IMG/VR virus record: IMGVR_UViG_3300031256_000055
Span: 1-56,710 of that record
Direction: 5' to 3' (one strand)
From: a virus
Lineage: Duplodnaviria > Caudoviricetes
Length of the DNA: 56,710 nt
A program made the translations under genes and the position numbers. The stretch's first letter is position 1; each line of letters starts with the position of its first letter. Positions 1 through 56,710 of this stretch are shown in pieces. The notes under the pieces were generated by a model. That model was given only the letters and a program-made list of their open reading frames with translations. It was not told the DNA's origin and did not search any database.

Positions 1-180
1 ATGATAGACATGAAACAAATAATAATGAATTGCACAATATGCGGAAAGGAAACTATCCTTACGAAACACAAAAGGTTAAGTTTTTTAAAAACGGGAAGAG
101 GTTATTGCTCAAAAAAATGTTCAAACGCTTACAGAGCGAAAATTTCTTCAATAACCATGTCAAGAACAAACAAGAAATAT
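1..180. repeat. Terminal direct repeat, left copy (circular overlap)
   Basis: 1-180 equals 56531-56710 except C53 vs T56583; the helicase reading frame is continuous across the join. Confidence 0.97.
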
Positions 181-1682
181 GCCAAGGCATTTTCTTTAAG
201 AATGAAAAAAAACAATCCCATGAACAATCCTGTTATAAGAGAAAAAGTAAGCTCAAAATTAAAAGCTATCGGGCATCGTCCTCATATAAGAGGTGGAAAC
301 GGGAAAGGACCTACGATTCATCAATTAGCTTTGGCAAACGCAATAGGCTGGGATATGGAGGTATCCATAAAAACAGGAATGAAAAAGGGGAGCGGGATGC
401 CCTATGTTTACAAAATAGATATTGCAAACGAAATATTAAAAATAGGGGTAGAAGTAGACGGGAATTCTCATGGAACGTTAATAAATCAAGAACGAGACAA
501 AAGGAAAACAGAATTCTTGACTGGATTAGGGTGGAAAATATTGAGATTCAAAAACATAGAGATAGAAAGAAATCTGGAAGAGTGTGTGAATATGATTATG
601 TCTATGATTTAGAAATTGAAGATAATCATAATTATTTTGCAAATAATATACTTGTGCATAACTGCCACCATATAGGAGCGTCAACCTGGCAAAAAATAAG
701 AAGTCATTTCCATAAAGCTAATCTTTATGGAACAACTGCAACCCCTGTAAGGCTGGACGGATATGGTATGGGTAATGATTTTGAAACTATGGTTGTCGGA
801 AAATCGTATGATTATCTTGTTGATAAAGGTTTTTTGTCATATCCGATTTATTATGTCCCAGAGAACCTACAATTAGATTATGACTTAGCTCATATAAAAA
901 AGAACGGCTATGATTATAATAAAAAACAATCCGAATTAATCCTTGATAAACGAGTAATCACCGGAAATGCTATTGATGAATATGCAAAGTTATGTGACAA
1001 AGAACCTGCCTTGGTGTTTTGTGTATCAATCAAACATGCGGAGCACGTAGCGGAGGAATTCAAAAATGCTGGATATCTAACGGATGTTATACACTCAAAA
1101 ATAAAACCTGATAAGGTTGCCGAGACCATCGAAAAATTAAGACGCGGGGAATTACATGTTGTAACCTCTTGTGATAAGGTCGGGGAAGGGACGGATATCC
1201 CGAAATTAAGAGCGGTGATATTATTACGTTATACGGCATCAATAACGGTCAATCATCAGCAAAACGGAAGGGCATCCAGGCCGTATGAGGGGAAAGAAAA
1301 TTCTATACATATTGATCTTGTCGGGAACTGTAAGACCCATGGGCTGATTAACTTTCCGATAAAATGGGAATTAACCAAGGGGAAATTTGAACCGCCCGTA
1401 CAAGGTGTTATAGAATGTGAATTCTGTATGAAATATTATTCCATTAATTTGCGAGCCTGTCCCCACTGTGGAAAGATGAGGATAATAAAAAAGAAGAAAA
1501 GGAAAGATCCGGTCGTAGTTCCCGGGGAATTGAAACGAATTGATTATGTGAAATTGAATGAGGAAGTGCAAAGAGCCGAATCCTTAGCTGATTTTCATAA
1601 AATAGCTAAGGAAGTTGGATACAAGCCGGGATGGGCTTATCATCGATGGAAACATAAACAGCGGGTAAAAGAGAAAGTTTAA
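1..1682 (+). CDS. SF2 DExH helicase, 3' part (intein remainder plus C-extein); precursor 771 aa, spliced product 459 aa
   Basis: Same frame as ORF 30..1682. Motifs VHN|CHH, GTTATPVRLDG, LVFCVSIKHA, GEGTDIP, HQQNGRASR, IDLVGN, C-terminal CxxC..CPHC and GYKPGWA. Confidence 0.95.
   Translation, partial: DRHETNNNELHNMRKGNYPYETQKVKFFKNGKRLLLKKMFKRLQSENFFNNHVKNKQEICQGIFFKNEKKQSHEQSCYKRKSKLKIKSYRASSSYKRWKRERTYDSSISFGKRNRLGYGGIHKNRNEKGERDALCLQNRYCKRNIKNRGRSRREFSWNVNKSRTRQKENRILDWIRVENIEIQKHRDRKKSGRVCEYDYVYDLEIEDNHNYFANNILVHNCHHIGASTWQKIRSHFHKANLYGTTATPVRLDGYGMGNDFETMVVGKSYDYLVDKGFLSYPIYYVPENLQLDYDLAHIKKNGYDYNKKQSELILDKRVITGNAIDEYAKLCDKEPALVFCVSIKHAEHVAEEFKNAGYLTDVIHSKIKPDKVAETIEKLRRGELHVVTSCDKVGEGTDIPKLRAVILLRYTASITVNHQQNGRASRPYEGKENSIHIDLVGNCKTHGLINFPIKWELTKGKFEPPVQGVIECEFCMKYYSINLRACPHCGKMRIIKKKKRKDPVVVPGELKRIDYVKLNEEVQRAESLADFHKIAKEVGYKPGWAYHRWKHKQRVKEKV
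10..612 (+). CDS. DUF559/Vsr-like PD-(D/E)XK endonuclease with N-terminal Cys4 finger and NUMOD3-like segment; putative homing endonuclease in the +1 frame inside the intein
   Basis: CTICGK..YCSKKC, NPMNNPVIREKVS, YKIDIA..IGVEVDGNSH..RDKRKTEFLTGLGWKILRF. Start at 10 preferred because the ATG at 1 overlaps the -10 box. Confidence 0.85.
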   Translation: MKQIIMNCTICGKETILTKHKRLSFLKTGRGYCSKKCSNAYRAKISSITMSRTNKKYAKAFSLRMKKNNPMNNPVIREKVSSKLKAIGHRPHIRGGNGKGPTIHQLALANAIGWDMEVSIKTGMKKGSGMPYVYKIDIANEILKIGVEVDGNSHGTLINQERDKRKTEFLTGLGWKILRFKNIEIERNLEECVNMIMSMI

Positions 1683-1764: not shown

Positions 1765-2259
1765 ATGGGACGAAAAGAACGAAAAATAATAAATGCCGAA
1801 CTACTCGAAGGATGTAAAAAAGGTTATCGATGGCGAGCTAATTCCGGGATGGCATGGCAGGGTAAAAAAATAAAACCCCCTGAACATATTTTAAAAATAC
1901 TTTCTTCATGGATGAAAGCCAACGGAATTAAACATAAACAAATAATAATACTTGCGGACCCTCGCCCATTTCACGGAATGCCTTCCGGTTTTTTTGATGT
2001 ATTCGGGTGGGAAAATATGACTGTTTGCGAAATAATAAAAAAACGAGACGATCATTCTCCATGTATGATAGATGAAACATCGAAAAAATCAGATTGTGAA
2101 GGTTGTGATTTAAATAATTCCGTTGCTGTCTTCGTGGGTGTAGAATGTAAAACCACAAACGATAATTTAAAACCGGATCAAATAAAATACAGGGATGCAT
2201 TGAAAAAATCCGGGGGTATATATCATGTAAGGAGGGAAGATGGCTATGTGGAAAAATAA
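1765..2259 (+). CDS. VRR-NUC family nuclease
   Basis: WRANSG, GFFDVFG, FVGVECKT..LKPDQIKY..KSGGIY; adjacent to SF2 helicase. Confidence 0.75.
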   Translation: MGRKERKIINAELLEGCKKGYRWRANSGMAWQGKKIKPPEHILKILSSWMKANGIKHKQIIILADPRPFHGMPSGFFDVFGWENMTVCEIIKKRDDHSPCMIDETSKKSDCEGCDLNNSVAVFVGVECKTTNDNLKPDQIKYRDALKKSGGIYHVRREDGYVEK

Positions 2260-2698
2260 GACGAGAAGTAAGAATAAACAAATAAGATTAAGAAAACATA
2301 AAGACTTCCAAGAAAAACTCGAATGGTTAACCGAGTATTTCAATCAGCAATATCCCGGATGGCAAAGAACAAAAAACGCCGACCACATTAAAATGAGGAT
2401 AAATCGAACGGCCAAAAAATGGACTACCGGGATATACAACAGGAAGATAAAAGCTGTATATAAAAAAGATTTCCCCAAGGATCAATGGCCGTTCAAAAAA
2501 GTTGACCAGGTTATTATAGTACAGACGAAAAAGAAAAATGCCATTGTTAAGATGGTAACCGTTATGATAGGATTAGAGGAGTATGCTTTGTCAGGGCTTG
2601 CGGCTGATTTTTTTAATATTACATTACTGAGTGCAGCAAATTGGCAGGTTCCAGGGATATCAACCGGACCATTTTGGAAGATCGGGGTGGAGTTGTGA
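2240..2698 (+). CDS. Hypothetical basic protein
   Basis: 152-aa ORF, SD GGAGG upstream, coupled to neighbours. Confidence 0.6.
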   Translation: MAMWKNKTRSKNKQIRLRKHKDFQEKLEWLTEYFNQQYPGWQRTKNADHIKMRINRTAKKWTTGIYNRKIKAVYKKDFPKDQWPFKKVDQVIIVQTKKKNAIVKMVTVMIGLEEYALSGLAADFFNITLLSAANWQVPGISTGPFWKIGVEL

Positions 2699-2910
2699 GT
2701 GAATGGATAAGCATAAAAGATAAACTACCAGATAATAATGATCCTATTTTAATTCATCATTTGGGGATAAGAGGTCATAATTTTATTTCTATGGGATGGT
2801 ATAATTTAGAGTATAAAATATTTATTCTTAATATTGGAAGTGAATGTTCTTCTGTTACTCACTGGATGCCGCCACCCGATAAACCAGAGGAGTTTAAAAA
2901 TGAAATATAA
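2695..2910 (+). CDS. DUF551-like phage protein
   Basis: EWISIKDKLP...VTHWMPPPDKPE; GTG start overlapping the previous stop. Confidence 0.75.
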   Translation: MSEWISIKDKLPDNNDPILIHHLGIRGHNFISMGWYNLEYKIFILNIGSECSSVTHWMPPPDKPEEFKNEI

Positions 2911-3100
2911 AATAGCATTGATTATTGTTTTAACGATTATTTATATAGGTTTATTTTGGGGAATTCCTACAATTATATTGTCTGTTGCGAATAACATTAA
3001 AAATTATTTTTTTATAGTTATGTGGCTTCATATTATAGTAGGTGTTTGCCTTGGAATATGTATATTAATTGCATATTTATTATGTAAGGCGGGATATTAA
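2900..3100 (+). CDS. Small two-TM membrane protein
   Basis: Two hydrophobic stretches; GAGGAG SD before ATG 2900. Confidence 0.55.
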   Translation: MKYKIALIIVLTIIYIGLFWGIPTIILSVANNIKNYFFIVMWLHIIVGVCLGICILIAYLLCKAGY

Positions 3101-4243
3101 ATGAACATAAAAAAAATACTTAAAAACATACATTATTTTATCTTGATCCTCATCCCTGCTGGCTGGATATTAAACTGGTATTATTACTATTCCCGGTTTC
3201 AATCGGAGGGGTTTGCCCCGGAGTTACAAATAATGATCCCTGTAATATTGGTTATATTCGCATCGGTTTGTTTTACAACTGGCAATTATCTACATAAAAA
3301 GAAAAATAAAATGTCAATTCTGTTTTTTATAATTTATGGCATCTTAGCTTTTTATTCAATTAACTGCACAACTGCAGGACAATATTGGAGCCAGGTTGTA
3401 AAAAATCAGGAAACCGAAATAAATGAAAATGTAAAAGATAATTCCTTATATCTTGTTGAGCGATATAAAACAAAGATAGCCGAAAAGGAAGAGGAATATA
3501 AAAAGCTTAATGAAATCAAGGATAATTCCATTAATGATTTATCTGATTTATACGGATTTAAAAACACAACAAAAACCGTTGAAGAAATGAAAGATAAAAT
3601 CGAAGCTGATATAAAAGAACTCGAAACTGAACTTGAAAAAATACTTAATCAAAATATGATATCCGTAAAAGAATCCGAAAAAAAGGAAAAGTCAAAAACA
3701 CTATATCAATTCTATGCAGGAAAAGACGGAAACCCAGATATTATCCAATTTATGTTCCAAGTTATGTTGTCGATAATAATTGAGTTAATTGCTCAAATGT
3801 CAATATATATTTTTATGATTATTGAAGATTATAAAAAACGAAAGACACCGGAAATGGAAGTAATCGCCTGTGAATCCGAGAGCGGTGATATTGTAGAGGT
3901 AGAGATTGAGCCCAAATCCGAGACAGAGATTGAACCGGTTGATAATCCCGGTATTTCTGAAAACAAAATAACCCCCGATGAATTGAAATATTTTTCAATT
4001 TTAGCATGGGAGGGAATACACCGGGGATGGTATAAGCATTTGTGTGAGAAAGATATGATTATAGGAAACATGCCCAAATTTAAACAAAATAATTTTACCG
4101 AAGAAAAATATAATAAGATAATTAATTTAGCTCTTCAAAATAAACTTATTAAAGAAGTAGGTAATAATTATGAACAATATAATGAATTTACAACCAATGA
4201 ATACTTTTTCAATAAAATGAAGAGCTTACTAAATTTGACTTAA
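3101..4243 (+). CDS. Membrane protein with three N-terminal TM helices, coiled coil and a fourth TM
   Basis: Hydrophobic segments flank an E/K-rich coiled-coil region. Confidence 0.6.
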   Translation: MNIKKILKNIHYFILILIPAGWILNWYYYYSRFQSEGFAPELQIMIPVILVIFASVCFTTGNYLHKKKNKMSILFFIIYGILAFYSINCTTAGQYWSQVVKNQETEINENVKDNSLYLVERYKTKIAEKEEEYKKLNEIKDNSINDLSDLYGFKNTTKTVEEMKDKIEADIKELETELEKILNQNMISVKESEKKEKSKTLYQFYAGKDGNPDIIQFMFQVMLSIIIELIAQMSIYIFMIIEDYKKRKTPEMEVIACESESGDIVEVEIEPKSETEIEPVDNPGISENKITPDELKYFSILAWEGIHRGWYKHLCEKDMIIGNMPKFKQNNFTEEKYNKIINLALQNKLIKEVGNNYEQYNEFTTNEYFFNKMKSLLNLT

Positions 4244-24750: not shown

Positions 24751-25141
24751 ACAACACCGCCTCAGTCAATTCTTTTAACTCGTATTCATAACCTATCAAA
24801 CTGTTATACTTTCGTAATTCACGCCTTTGAATTACCTTTAACTTTATCCCATTATACACGAATTCAAGTCTGTTGTCAACAAGCGTTTCATAGTCGGATA
24901 TCATAAAATAAACGCGCTGTTGTATATAAATCGGCGATCCGTTTTCTATTTTCCGTATAGGCTTTGTCGTAAAACTTATCCGGACATTATTTGTATAAAT
25001 TTTTAATTCCGGTACCGCATCTTTATTCTCGTTATACCGTCCGTGTCCGTTATCAAATAACGGGTATAAATCCCCGGATAATGAAAAAGGATTCAAGGCA
25101 ATTTTCTGTTTGTTTGCCGTCCTCAACATAGCGGCTGACAT
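24743..25141 (-). CDS. Head closure / stopper-like protein
   Basis: Size and position after the adaptor gene. Confidence 0.45.
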   Translation of the reverse strand: MSAAMLRTANKQKIALNPFSLSGDLYPLFDNGHGRYNENKDAVPELKIYTNNVRISFTTKPIRKIENGSPIYIQQRVYFMISDYETLVDNRLEFVYNGIKLKVIQRRELRKYNSLIGYEYELKELTEAVLYA

Positions 25142-40385: not shown

Positions 40386-40754
40386 TTAAATAGTGTTATT
40401 ATAGTCTATTAACTCTTGTTTTGTCAAGTATTTTCTGTGTTTGTTTTTTATCTTACAAATTCTATGCTCTTCAACACTTCCGGGCGATTTTTTCCACCCG
40501 GGCATAAAAAAAATTATATCACATTTCAACATCCAGGAAATGCAATCATCAAGAATAGCTTCCCTGCCCTCAATTGTGTAGTCGGCCCCCTCTAAATACA
40601 TAAAATTAGTATGAGGACAAAAAACTGTATATCCCTTGCTTCTCAAATAAGCTGCCGCTTTCATAGCCTCCTGGATATTTTCTCTTATGGTTTTTTTGTC
40701 CCCCGAATAAGGCCCTGCAACATAAGCAAATATTTTTTCTTTCGTTTTGTTCAT
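40386..40754 (-). CDS. DUF4406/DUF1937-like (nucleoside deoxyribosyltransferase-fold) protein
   Basis: AYVAGPYSG, VFCPH, CDIIFFMPGWKKSPGSVEE. Confidence 0.75.
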   Translation of the reverse strand: MNKTKEKIFAYVAGPYSGDKKTIRENIQEAMKAAAYLRSKGYTVFCPHTNFMYLEGADYTIEGREAILDDCISWMLKCDIIFFMPGWKKSPGSVEEHRICKIKNKHRKYLTKQELIDYNNTI

Positions 40755-46090: not shown

Positions 46091-46119
46091 TTGACATTTT
46101 TATTATTATTTGATATAAT
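46091..46119 (+). promoter_or_regulatory. Consensus sigma70 rightward promoter
   Basis: TTGACA-N17-TATAAT then AAGGAGG. Confidence 0.8.
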
Positions 46120-55681: not shown

Positions 55682-55900
55682 ATGGAGCAAGAACTATTCC
55701 CAGAAACCGAATATATAAATCAAGATATCCTTCGTTCATATTGGTGGTGGCGTAAAATATTTGGACATGAAAATTCTATAGACATGATGTGTCATGTTGC
55801 TTCCCGTAAAAATGCCAAAGAATGGATACAAGTAATAAAAAGCCAGTGCAAGATTATATATGATAAGAATATAAAATACAAACGGGTAAAAAAGAAATGA
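55682..55900 (+). CDS. Hypothetical protein
   Basis: 72 aa between the primase-helicase and the SF2 helicase. Confidence 0.55.
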   Translation: MEQELFPETEYINQDILRSYWWWRKIFGHENSIDMMCHVASRKNAKEWIQVIKSQCKIIYDKNIKYKRVKKK

Positions 55901-56710
55901 TATACGAACCACGTGACTATCAATATAAAGATATAGCGAAAATACGAGATACGTACAAAGCCGGATCAAAGGCGACTATTTACGTGTCTCATACGGGAAG
56001 CGGTAAAACTATAGTTTTTTCATATATCACCGAACGGCTATATCAGAATAAACAAAAAATATTAATCTGTACTCATCGTGATAATATACTGCAAGAAACA
56101 TCAAAAAAGTTAACGGCTATAGGATTGAAACACGGTATTATTGCCCCCGGGTATCCTTTGGTTAGATATCAAATACAACTTGCAAGTATTCAGACATTAG
56201 TTAGACGGTTGAATCAATGGAACTTCGACTGGTTTGACTGGATGATCTTCGATGAGTGTTTTGTAAAAGGCACAAAAATATTAACTGAAAATGGAAATAA
56301 AAATATAGAAAATATAAAACCAGAGGAGACGGTTTATACTGTAAATGAAAAAACAAAGCAAATTGAAATAAAAAAAGTTAAGAGACTAATAAAAAAGAAA
56401 AGAATAAAAAATCTTGTAAAAATAAATAATATCTTATGTACTGAAAATCACAAAATATATACACAAAGAGGCTGGATTGAAGCAAAAAATATAAAAAAAG
56501 GTGTTGACATGGTGGCTACCATCATGTATAATGATAGACATGAAACAAATAATAATGAATTGCACAATATGCGGAAAGGAAATTATCCTTACGAAACACA
56601 AAAGGTTAAGTTTTTTAAAAACGGGAAGAGGTTATTGCTCAAAAAAATGTTCAAACGCTTACAGAGCGAAAATTTCTTCAATAACCATGTCAAGAACAAA
56701 CAAGAAATAT
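55897..56710 (+). CDS. SF2 DExH helicase, 5' part (N-extein plus intein N-terminal domain); continues across the join to 1682
   Basis: ATG 55897 overlaps the upstream stop (ATGA). Hand translation gives Q-motif PRDYQ, Walker A HTGSGKT, ASIQTL and MIFDE|CFVKGT. Missing from the ORF track because it runs off the end. Confidence 0.95.
   Translation, partial: MIYEPRDYQYKDIAKIRDTYKAGSKATIYVSHTGSGKTIVFSYITERLYQNKQKILICTHRDNILQETSKKLTAIGLKHGIIAPGYPLVRYQIQLASIQTLVRRLNQWNFDWFDWMIFDECFVKGTKILTENGNKNIENIKPEETVYTVNEKTKQIEIKKVKRLIKKKRIKNLVKINNILCTENHKIYTQRGWIEAKNIKKGVDMVATIMYNDRHETNNNELHNMRKGNYPYETQKVKFFKNGKRLLLKKMFKRLQSENFFNNHVKNKQEI
56504..56532 (+). promoter_or_regulatory. Consensus sigma70 promoter inside the intein, pointing at the endonuclease ORF
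   Basis: TTGACA 56504-09, 17-nt spacer, TATAAT 56527-32; 7 nt later the ATG at 56540 (= position 10). Confidence 0.85.
56531..56710. repeat. Terminal direct repeat, right copy; unit genome length 56,530 bp
   Basis: Direct base comparison with 1-180. Confidence 0.97.

Follow-up and report, generated by a model that had tools for sequence, protein, structure and literature searches.

The textbook intein is a splicing domain fused in frame with an endonuclease. The element described here lies in a stretch of viral DNA of 56,710 nucleotides (nt) (Duplodnaviria; Caudoviricetes; IMG/VR virus record IMGVR_UViG_3300031256_000055, positions 1 to 56,710), the whole of which is referred to below as the window. 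We consider it likely, with good confidence, that this element is a mobile class-1 intein seated in motif II of a helicase gene, within which a free-standing Vsr-like/EDxHD nuclease gene is nested in the +1 reading frame; translation of both frames, splicing, cleavage and homing are predicted from the evidence assembled below.

Gosselin, Arsenault and Gogarten (bioRxiv 10.1101/2025.01.02.630785) reported actinophage inteins that are contiguous and hold an endonuclease gene, either antisense (LAGLIDADG or VSR-like) or on the same strand in “frame 3” (Endonuclease VII-like). In their explanation, a free-standing endonuclease gene has invaded an intein; they found evidence for continued transfer and stated that VSR-like enzymes were otherwise known only with split inteins. 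The element in the window likewise holds its endonuclease inside a contiguous intein and out of the intein frame; unlike the VSR-like (possibly EDxHD) genes of the actinophages, which are antisense, its gene runs on the same strand at +1, and its host is helicase motif II rather than a DNA polymerase, minor capsid, terminase or thymidylate synthase gene. A preliminary description of the window had mentioned reports of out-of-frame intein endonucleases in some actinobacteriophages, and the preprint bears this out; since such endonucleases are already published, the architecture is rare in print, not unprecedented.

A second close parallel is the cyanobacterial dnaX intein with a LAGLIDADG open reading frame (ORF) at +2, reported by Phillips, DeSimone and Gogarten (10.64898/2026.09.14.751524), who credited Gorbalenya 1998 and proposed the secondary invasion of a mini-intein. 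The two share a same-strand overlapping ORF in a contiguous intein and the coexistence of mini and empty alleles, and the low ratio of nonsynonymous to synonymous substitutions (dN/dS) in the endonuclease frame of dnaX, as against a high one in its intein frame, resembles the selection found here. In contrast to that system (LAGLIDADG, +2, bacterial chromosome), the present one involves a Vsr-like/EDxHD nuclease at +1, in phages, and ends in a tail of about 90 nt that codes for structure in both frames.

The “fractured genes” of Dassa et al. 2009 (PMC2677866) also have a nuclease of the Vsr-like family on the same strand between intein halves, in phage genes of DNA metabolism, and control elements were reported to come along with the endonuclease gene. 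There, the endonuclease 3' end overlaps the C-intein by 6-69 bp, against about 90 nt here, and the N-intein is followed by a stop, 27-51 nt of non-coding sequence and a separate start of the C-intein, whereas the frame in the window is uninterrupted. The window corresponds to the contiguous state that the model of Dassa et al. draws only as an “in-frame” integration. As for the enzyme, I-Bth0305I (Taylor et al. 2011, PMC3239194; PDB 3R3P) similarly joins an N-terminal DNA-binding region to a C-terminal Vsr-like catalytic domain, but it belongs to a recA group I intron and carries NUMOD2/helix-turn-helix motifs, where the window nuclease has a Cys4 module and no detected NUMOD. Finally, the ShiLan-type HNH enzyme (Arsenault et al. 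2025, PMC11855218) is likewise encoded out of frame in an insertion that is free of stops in the host frame; this insertion, in phage methylase genes, lacks a splicing domain and is presumed to be a tolerated loop, whereas complete Hint blocks flank the nuclease gene here. A literature search, which left supplements and subscription journals outside its scope, returned only the works cited here; none of them describes this helicase intein or any contiguous intein with a Vsr-like/EDxHD gene on the same strand at +1. As far as checked, then, the kind of arrangement is already known, and the family, its abundance, the strength of its stop avoidance and the dual-coding tail are new.

The gene under study runs across the ends of the record. 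The last 180 nt of the window repeat the first 180 nt with one mismatch (C at position 53, T at 56583), from which it follows that this single virus record is circularly closed, with a phage unit of 56,530 nt; the record is labelled “linear” yet closes on itself. An independent contig of sequencing run X1 spans the end junction and has T at the variable position, where the two bases give Thr or Ile in the nuclease frame and one and the same residue in the intein frame. When the ends are joined (55897..56530 + 1..1682), the gene is open throughout and encodes a DEAH-type helicase precursor of 771 amino acids (aa). The predicted intein of 312 aa, CFVKGT...ILVHN, lies between MIFDE and CHH, and the spliced product would be 459 aa long; the joined-end helicase with its intein at DE↓CHH (arrows mark junctions) and all three lengths had been given in the preliminary description and were reproduced exactly. 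The coordinates of all features are collected in Table 1.

The class-1 splicing residues are complete, reading DE↓C FVKGT ... VHN↓C HH, with T-x-x-H present as CTENH and the terminal VYDLEIEDNHNYFANNILVHN followed by Cys+1. The T-x-x-H and His-Asn regions correspond to blocks B and F/G of the intein literature. Pfam places Hint_2, Intein_splicing, PT-HINT and Vint at aa 121-224 of the N-terminal piece and the final 27 positions of Intein_splicing in the C-terminal piece; between profile positions of about 111 and 129 lie some 200 residues that match no family. Profiles of our own for HintN and HintC match the relatives in the extein frame. Four intein-less homologues (L017-L020) are contiguous at the site, reading IIVDEAHHA, and by this alignment the insertion interrupts the DEAH box (motif II) between its E and the next residue. 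Because that box is catalytic, the intein must be removed.

Frame 1 is open over 203 codons (1..612) and gives an ORF of 195-203 aa, depending on the start used. Its product starts with a Cys4 module, continues through helices and ends in a Vsr-like/EDxHD (I-Bth0305I-like) nuclease domain. The frame-1 ORF matches DUF559 (PF04480) with an E-value of 8.9e-12 and 45.3 bits, against a cut-off of 20.6, and a profile built from five members of the family matches PDB entries 3hrl (1e-6) and 3r3p (the catalytic domain of I-Bth0305I, 1e-3), to which enzyme the window nuclease is about 17% identical over the aligned domain. An AlphaFold2 (AF2) model of the nuclease has a mean pLDDT (predicted local distance difference test) score of 71, with 78-91 across the nuclease domain. 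Foldseek aligned the model best to 3r3p (probability 1.00, template modelling score 0.58 on the target), then to 1vsr (Vsr) and 3hrl, with probabilities of 0.96-1.00 and weak E-values (1e-3 to 4e-2). E143, D145, H149 and D158, the putative counterparts of the catalytic residues of I-Bth0305I, are invariant in the nuclease alignment (A1) and conserved in 13 loci; the four N-terminal cysteines are invariant too, and present in the window nuclease. The Cys4 module is visible in the sequence, where helices are predicted and the match to zf-FCS is weak (E 0.069). On these grounds the nuclease is assigned to the Vsr-like/EDxHD kind of homing endonuclease, with cleavage as its predicted activity.

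Searches of both frames with profile hidden Markov models agree with what the preliminary description expected: the Hint halves fall in the helicase frame, the DUF559/Vsr-type nuclease in +1, and the intein-frame linker between the halves yields no significant Pfam family. Its account of the nuclease as Cys4, NUMOD3-like and DUF559-type holds for the Cys4 module and for DUF559 and is not borne out for NUMOD3, as a Pfam scan of the ORF gave no NUMOD family at E <= 1; its placing of the nuclease stop at the start of block F agrees with a stop that falls inside VYD↓LEIED of block F. An alternative genetic code was considered and dropped: all genes are normal under table 11, and the TAG of the nuclease is aligned with the ends of its homologues.

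The intein frame over the nuclease gene was proposed in the preliminary description to be kept free of stops for the sake of splicing. With the nuclease protein held fixed and the codon usage of the phage applied, an exact dynamic-programming calculation over synonymous codons expects 18.4 stops in the intein frame, where none is seen (P(0) = 5e-12); extein codon usage lowers the expectation to 16.0 (P = 1e-10), and the third frame over the same stretch holds 35 stops. The intein frame can acquire a stop only where AA, AG or GA opens the codon that follows a T-ending nuclease codon. Ahead of such a dinucleotide, none of the 49 window codons that could end in T does so, against 43 of 99 elsewhere, and over 57 distinct loci (sequences below 90% identity to each other, the set pooled for codon counts and entropies) the figures are 0/2488 and 2164/5827. 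The double-open frame is thus kept by selection against stops, and chance is excluded. The linker itself is probably a translated and disordered passenger of the nuclease gene; the equivalent stretch of a homologue (L001) is modelled by AF2 with a pLDDT of 21-43. In a test for constraint on the passenger peptide, its hydrophobic, Lys/Arg (K/R) and Asp/Glu (D/E) contents were compared with stop-free synonymous nulls, and hydrophobicity stayed within the null at the level of two standard deviations (sd) in 9/9 loci.

Conservation, on the other hand, follows the nuclease frame, as was predicted beforehand for homologues of this element. In 78/78 pairs among 13 loci, the two sequences resemble each other more in the nuclease-frame translation than in the intein-frame one, and close pairs differ almost solely at the third nuclease codon position, the differences at positions 1/2/3 being 0.01/0.00/0.129 for L010 against L014 and 0.02/0.015/0.098 for L009 against L012. 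Over the 57 distinct sequences, nucleotide entropy is 1.22/1.10/1.58 at nuclease positions 1/2/3, and amino-acid entropy is lower in the nuclease than in the intein frame in all five segments. Judged by substitution pattern and entropy rather than by a formal dN/dS model, these data point to purifying selection on the nuclease frame, with the overlapping intein frame relaxed.

The tail of the nuclease gene is of a different nature, for the same bases encode GWK[IV]LRF.N.E[IV]... of the nuclease and the Hint strands [IV]RVE.IEI.K. The overlap of nuclease and Hint C amounts to about 90 nt in the window and to 58-169 nt in the relatives, mostly 82-124 (70/80 IMG/VR loci with a HintC-profile match). 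Over the final 28 or so nuclease codons, entropy goes down to 0.99/0.83/1.23 at positions 1/2/3, and that of the intein frame is 1.98 as against 2.5-2.9 elsewhere. Since the 3' end of the nuclease and the Hint-C strands share their bases, no indel could run one polypeptide through both.

The arrangement is widespread. A tblastn search with the nuclease against 50,697 phage records (E <= 1e-3) matched 41 records of isolate phages, 40 of them with at least 80% coverage: 37 Vibrio phages, Corynebacterium phage phi673 (two records), Pseudomonas phage MR14 and a Leptolyngbya phage, in which the match is an annotated free-standing homing endonuclease. In all eight isolate records that were fetched, the nuclease lies at +1 inside an annotated coding sequence (CDS) whose own frame has no stop; these CDSs are annotated as helicase, hypothetical or “coil containing”. 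From IMG/VR, the best 80 of 166 relatives found by a profile scan were sorted with our Hint-N, Hint-C and nuclease profiles. In 67 of the 80, Hint N is in frame f, the nuclease in f+1 and Hint C in f again, with zero stops against 2-27 expected, and three more (L082, L083, L089) have the same layout by eye with a divergent Hint C, which brings the count to 70/80. Contigs of metagenome-assembled genomes (MAGs; one genome per prokaryotic species) supplied 26 full-length loci, of which 21 are +1 with zero stops, two have Hint N only and three have no Hint match. Among the first 13 loci compared, 12 have no stop, the exception being L004 with one against 23 expected. The +1 offset is common to 79 independently assembled loci, and by these comparisons the out-of-frame state is the norm in this nuclease/intein family.

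The remaining loci depart from that layout. Three of the 80 (L071-L073, at about 2250-3210) are true split-intein fractured genes: a stop stands directly after Hint N, the nuclease is at +1, the C-intein has its own Met start (MFKRVESVEIY), the old intein frame holds 15-25 stops, which is the number expected, and the insertion site differs (DESHS↓C or DEHHR↓C ... VHN↓CGAFPKP). In L074 (1/80; 2249-3138), Hint N runs in frame into a nuclease that misses half of its Cys4 module and ends at the nuclease stop, with Hint C and the C-extein in another frame; its state stems either from a natural frameshift or from faulty assembly. L005 (2416-3582) carries a distant nuclease (29% identity) fully in frame inside an intein, CFIDGQ...FVVHN↓C, and its host protein differs from the helicase. 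Of the rest, L026 (1/80) is cut by the contig end and 5/80 have no Hint match. As side observations, one IMG/VR contig (L077, L084) bears two overprinted copies in two different genes, and a weak second Hint match stands upstream in the same frame, at about 1.3 kilobases (kb) in L033 and L039 and about 0.8 kb in L096, possibly a second intein.

How the nuclease might be made as a separate protein, which the preliminary description had proposed, is suggested by signals in front of its gene: a perfect promoter match in the window and Shine-Dalgarno (SD)-like motifs in relatives. The promoter, TTGACA-17 nt-TATAAT, is embedded in the last codons of Hint N, 7 nt before the ATG at position 10, its final two bases (56531-56532) being bases 1-2 of the window. 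The whole window holds four perfect TTGACA-N16-18-TATAAT sites, where 0.12 would be expected. Of the other three, two stand just upstream of gene starts, and the one at 46091 has divergent gene blocks on either side; the phage seems to use consensus sigma-70 promoters. In 35 of the 57 distinct loci, an SD-like motif stands before a start that is at most 20 codons away from the first CxxC, as compared with 12% of start-like triplets in the exteins, and in several Vibrio and Pseudomonas phages its GAGG is formed by the Asp-Glu-Val codons of the Hint “GD.V” strand. A small palindrome, ATGGTGGCTACCAT, sits in the promoter spacer (56510-56526), and similar GATGGTTA.CATCAT elements directly precede the nuclease start in L038, L045 and L048; by analogy with the hairpins described by Dassa et al. 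(PMC2677866), the palindrome could be an operator or a hairpin masking the ribosome-binding site.

Table 1. Features of the helicase-intein-nuclease locus and further sites in the window.
Feature	Position	Strand	Details	Evidence
Terminal direct repeat	1-180 and 56531-56710	none		identical except position 53/56583
N-extein, DEAH-type helicase	55897..56256	+	aa 1-120, end ...WMIFDE	Pfam ResIII E 6.9e-14; PHROG 16 “DNA helicase”
Intein N-terminal splicing region	56257..56520	+	intein aa 1-88, end GVDMVAT	Hint_2, Intein_splicing, PT-HINT, Vint
C1	56257-56259	+	intein residue 1	
Block B, T62-x-x-H65	56440-56451	+	CTENH at intein aa 61-65	
Intein-frame “linker”	3..518, continuing from 56521-56530	+	about 175 aa, 28% K/R	no Pfam match; zero stops
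Intein C-terminal splicing region	519..662	+	DWIRVENIEIQK...VYDLEIEDNHNYFANNILVHN, His-Asn end	Intein_splicing profile positions 129-155; alignment
C-extein	663..1682	+	start CHHIGAS, stop 1680-1682	Helicase_C E 6.6e-14; PHROG 16 E 5e-50
Homing-endonuclease ORF, +1 relative to intein	10..612	+	starts ATG 1, 10, 25; stop TAG 610-612	
Dual-coding stretch	519..609	+	frame 1: C-terminal strand and helices of the nuclease (GWKILRFKNIEIERNLEECVNMIMSMI); frame 3: conserved Hint strands	
Perfect sigma-70-type promoter, TTGACA-17 nt-TATAAT, putative function	56504..56532	+		12/12 consensus match
Further perfect promoter site	24851-24879	-		consensus match
Further perfect promoter site	40398-40427	-		consensus match
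Further perfect promoter site	46091-46119	+		consensus match

The sequence of events that we propose is as follows. The nuclease gene would be nested at the canonical endonuclease insertion point of the intein, and the helicase mRNA would be translated straight through the intein frame, selection on the passenger peptide only forbidding stops. The Hint parts would then fold and splice in cis via C1, T-x-x-H and His-Asn with Cys+1, to yield the 459-aa helicase with DECHH and the excised 312-aa intein. The nuclease of the window would be made separately from its own consensus promoter, probably on a leaderless or short-leader mRNA, and that of most relatives from an internal ribosome-binding site. 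In a mixed infection it would cut intein-less DE(A/C)H alleles, and repair would copy the intein together with the nuclease gene.

Several points weigh against this proposal. The halves of the window intein score 25.0 (N) and 15.7-17.5 bits (C) against the Intein_splicing (PF14890) cut-off of 35.8, because the ends of the record cut the gene; contiguous homologous inteins pass the cut-off as a single stretch (L023 with 61.2, L007 with 46.3 and L001 with 39.9 bits). An AF2 model of the L001 intein (mean pLDDT 38.7, from an alignment of five rows) folds, at moderate confidence, just the Hint part at the N-terminus and leaves the C part undocked; fold-level support for cis-splicing around a 190-aa insert is therefore lacking, and the model speaks neither for nor against it. 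Linker charge deviates from the null in opposite directions between loci, K/R being higher in the window (0.28 against 0.20) and the Vibrio, Pseudomonas and Corynebacterium phage loci (L007-L011) having fewer K/R and more D/E by 2.5-4 sd, so that some further constraint on the peptide is possible. No SD-like motif precedes the window nuclease ORF, whose promoter is a consensus match only, and the contigs of four sequencing runs contain neither an intein-less allele of this phage nor a loose end at 662/663. Lastly, the higher identity of the nucleases than of their exteins, described below, could stem in part from stronger constraint and not from transfer.

The missing SD-like motif and the missing intein-less allele would also suit a relic, in which the window nuclease has lost its expression or activity and the intein persists as a de facto mini-intein with a long loop, and homing endonucleases commonly decay once fixed. 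Set against this are the intact ORF with its invariant E, D, H, D and Cys4 residues, the perfect promoter directly upstream and the purifying selection on the nuclease frame read from the family-wide substitution pattern, and we regard a relic as improbable. Somewhat harder still to credit is a fractured gene, whose halves would be made separately (with an internal start close to the Hint-C strands serving the C half) and spliced in trans, the open frame being incidental. The nuclease family and the 3' overlap with the C-intein are indeed those known from Dassa et al. 2009 (PMC2677866), true fractured relatives exist in L071-L073, and PHROGs 16259 and 9690 look like N- and C-halves that end and start at the intein. 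But an intein frame so released would accumulate stops, as it has in L071-L073 (15-25), whereas the window and 70/80 IMG/VR loci have none where 2-27 are expected; and as no stop follows Hint N in the window, ribosomes must continue.

Recoding, by which ribosomes would leave the intein frame for the nuclease frame after Hint N, return to it ahead of Hint C and so make a canonical in-frame enzyme, could draw on the shared strand of both ORFs, on the in-frame fusion of Hint N to the nuclease in L074 and on the fully in-frame nuclease of L005. Two shifts would, however, make stop avoidance over about 200 intein-frame codons needless, yet that avoidance is absolute; the overlap of about 90 nt means that a single polypeptide cannot hold both the nuclease end and Hint C; and starts with SD-like motifs or a promoter precede the nuclease ORF. 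Recoding is accordingly given very little credence. The record is a metagenome assembly, and compensating assembly or sequencing indels might have shifted a normal in-frame endonuclease out of frame. The chance of such an artefact is negligible in our estimation: the contigs of four runs, including a strain 92% identical, show no indels that would place the nuclease in frame, which the preliminary description had named as evidence against its reading; the same +1 offset recurs in 8/8 fetched isolate records and in 79 loci overall, and no indel could remove the 3' overlap.

With the nested, separately expressed nuclease gene retained as the preferred reading, the distribution of the element bears on its mobility. 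Identity to relatives is 45-51% for the window nuclease and 24-36% for the exteins. The DE↓CH junction is used in 47/57 distinct loci, across several helicase subfamilies, and DnaX/clamp-loader-like genes (L002, L003) also host the overprinted intein. Around the insertion site there is no nucleotide conservation beyond the codon demands of DE↓CH, so that no target-site motif is proposed. For the lineage of the window itself, the nearest intein-less homologues are 34-40% identical, and the one strain seen, 92% identical, also carries the element without indels. In Vibrio phages, helicase exteins 85-88% identical to those of 1.088.O have the same site empty, with a mini-intein or with the overprinted form: it is empty in PS17B.1 (QDECHH), holds a 150-aa mini-intein in K459, 268E42.1 and PS65A.1, and holds the 356-aa overprinted intein in phages such as 1.088.O, Hint N being 41% identical between the mini and overprinted forms. 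Such a pattern of presence and absence is that expected of a homing element. The site in PS17B.1 (L181) reads DECHH and not DEAHH. A precise loss of the intein may have left this footprint, or the DECH box may be natural and provide the +1 Cys ready-made. There are two further side observations. The PS65A.1 helicase (L184, 301-3432) bears two inteins, the mini-intein at DE↓CHH and a canonical in-frame LAGLIDADG one at Walker A (GGGK↓C...THN↓T). In the clamp-loader-like hosts, the intein sites of L002/L095 and L003 are two residues apart (LLDEAH↓C...N↓CLTKPS and LLDE↓C...N↓CHMLTKPS), which looks like extein switching via the shared Walker-B DE(A/C)H motif.

A bolder and decidedly tentative reading, which we hold to be possible but doubtful, is that the nuclease gene and the first Hint-C strands form an obligate dual-coding cassette and that this cassette is the real unit of spread. 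It would home into empty DE(A/C)H sites and also into resident mini-inteins (such as the 150-aa inteins of K459 and 268E42.1), thereby making them endonuclease-bearing; the process would usually reach stability in the contiguous stop-free state, and the fractured L071-L073, the half-fused L074 and the in-frame L005 would be its derivatives.

The element adds a large and phylogenetically wide out-of-frame family to a handful of recent reports, and links the “fractured gene” model of 2009 (PMC2677866) with contiguous inteins. For annotation, it means that host genes have been called “helicase”, “coil containing protein” or “hypothetical protein” and the nuclease gene has been missed. The element may also supply new compact inteins that tolerate inserts of about 200 aa. 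Empty, mini, overprinted, fractured and in-frame alleles are available for studying how endonucleases enter inteins, and if the cassette reading were true, they would form a living series for the gain of endonucleases by inteins and for the origin of split inteins.

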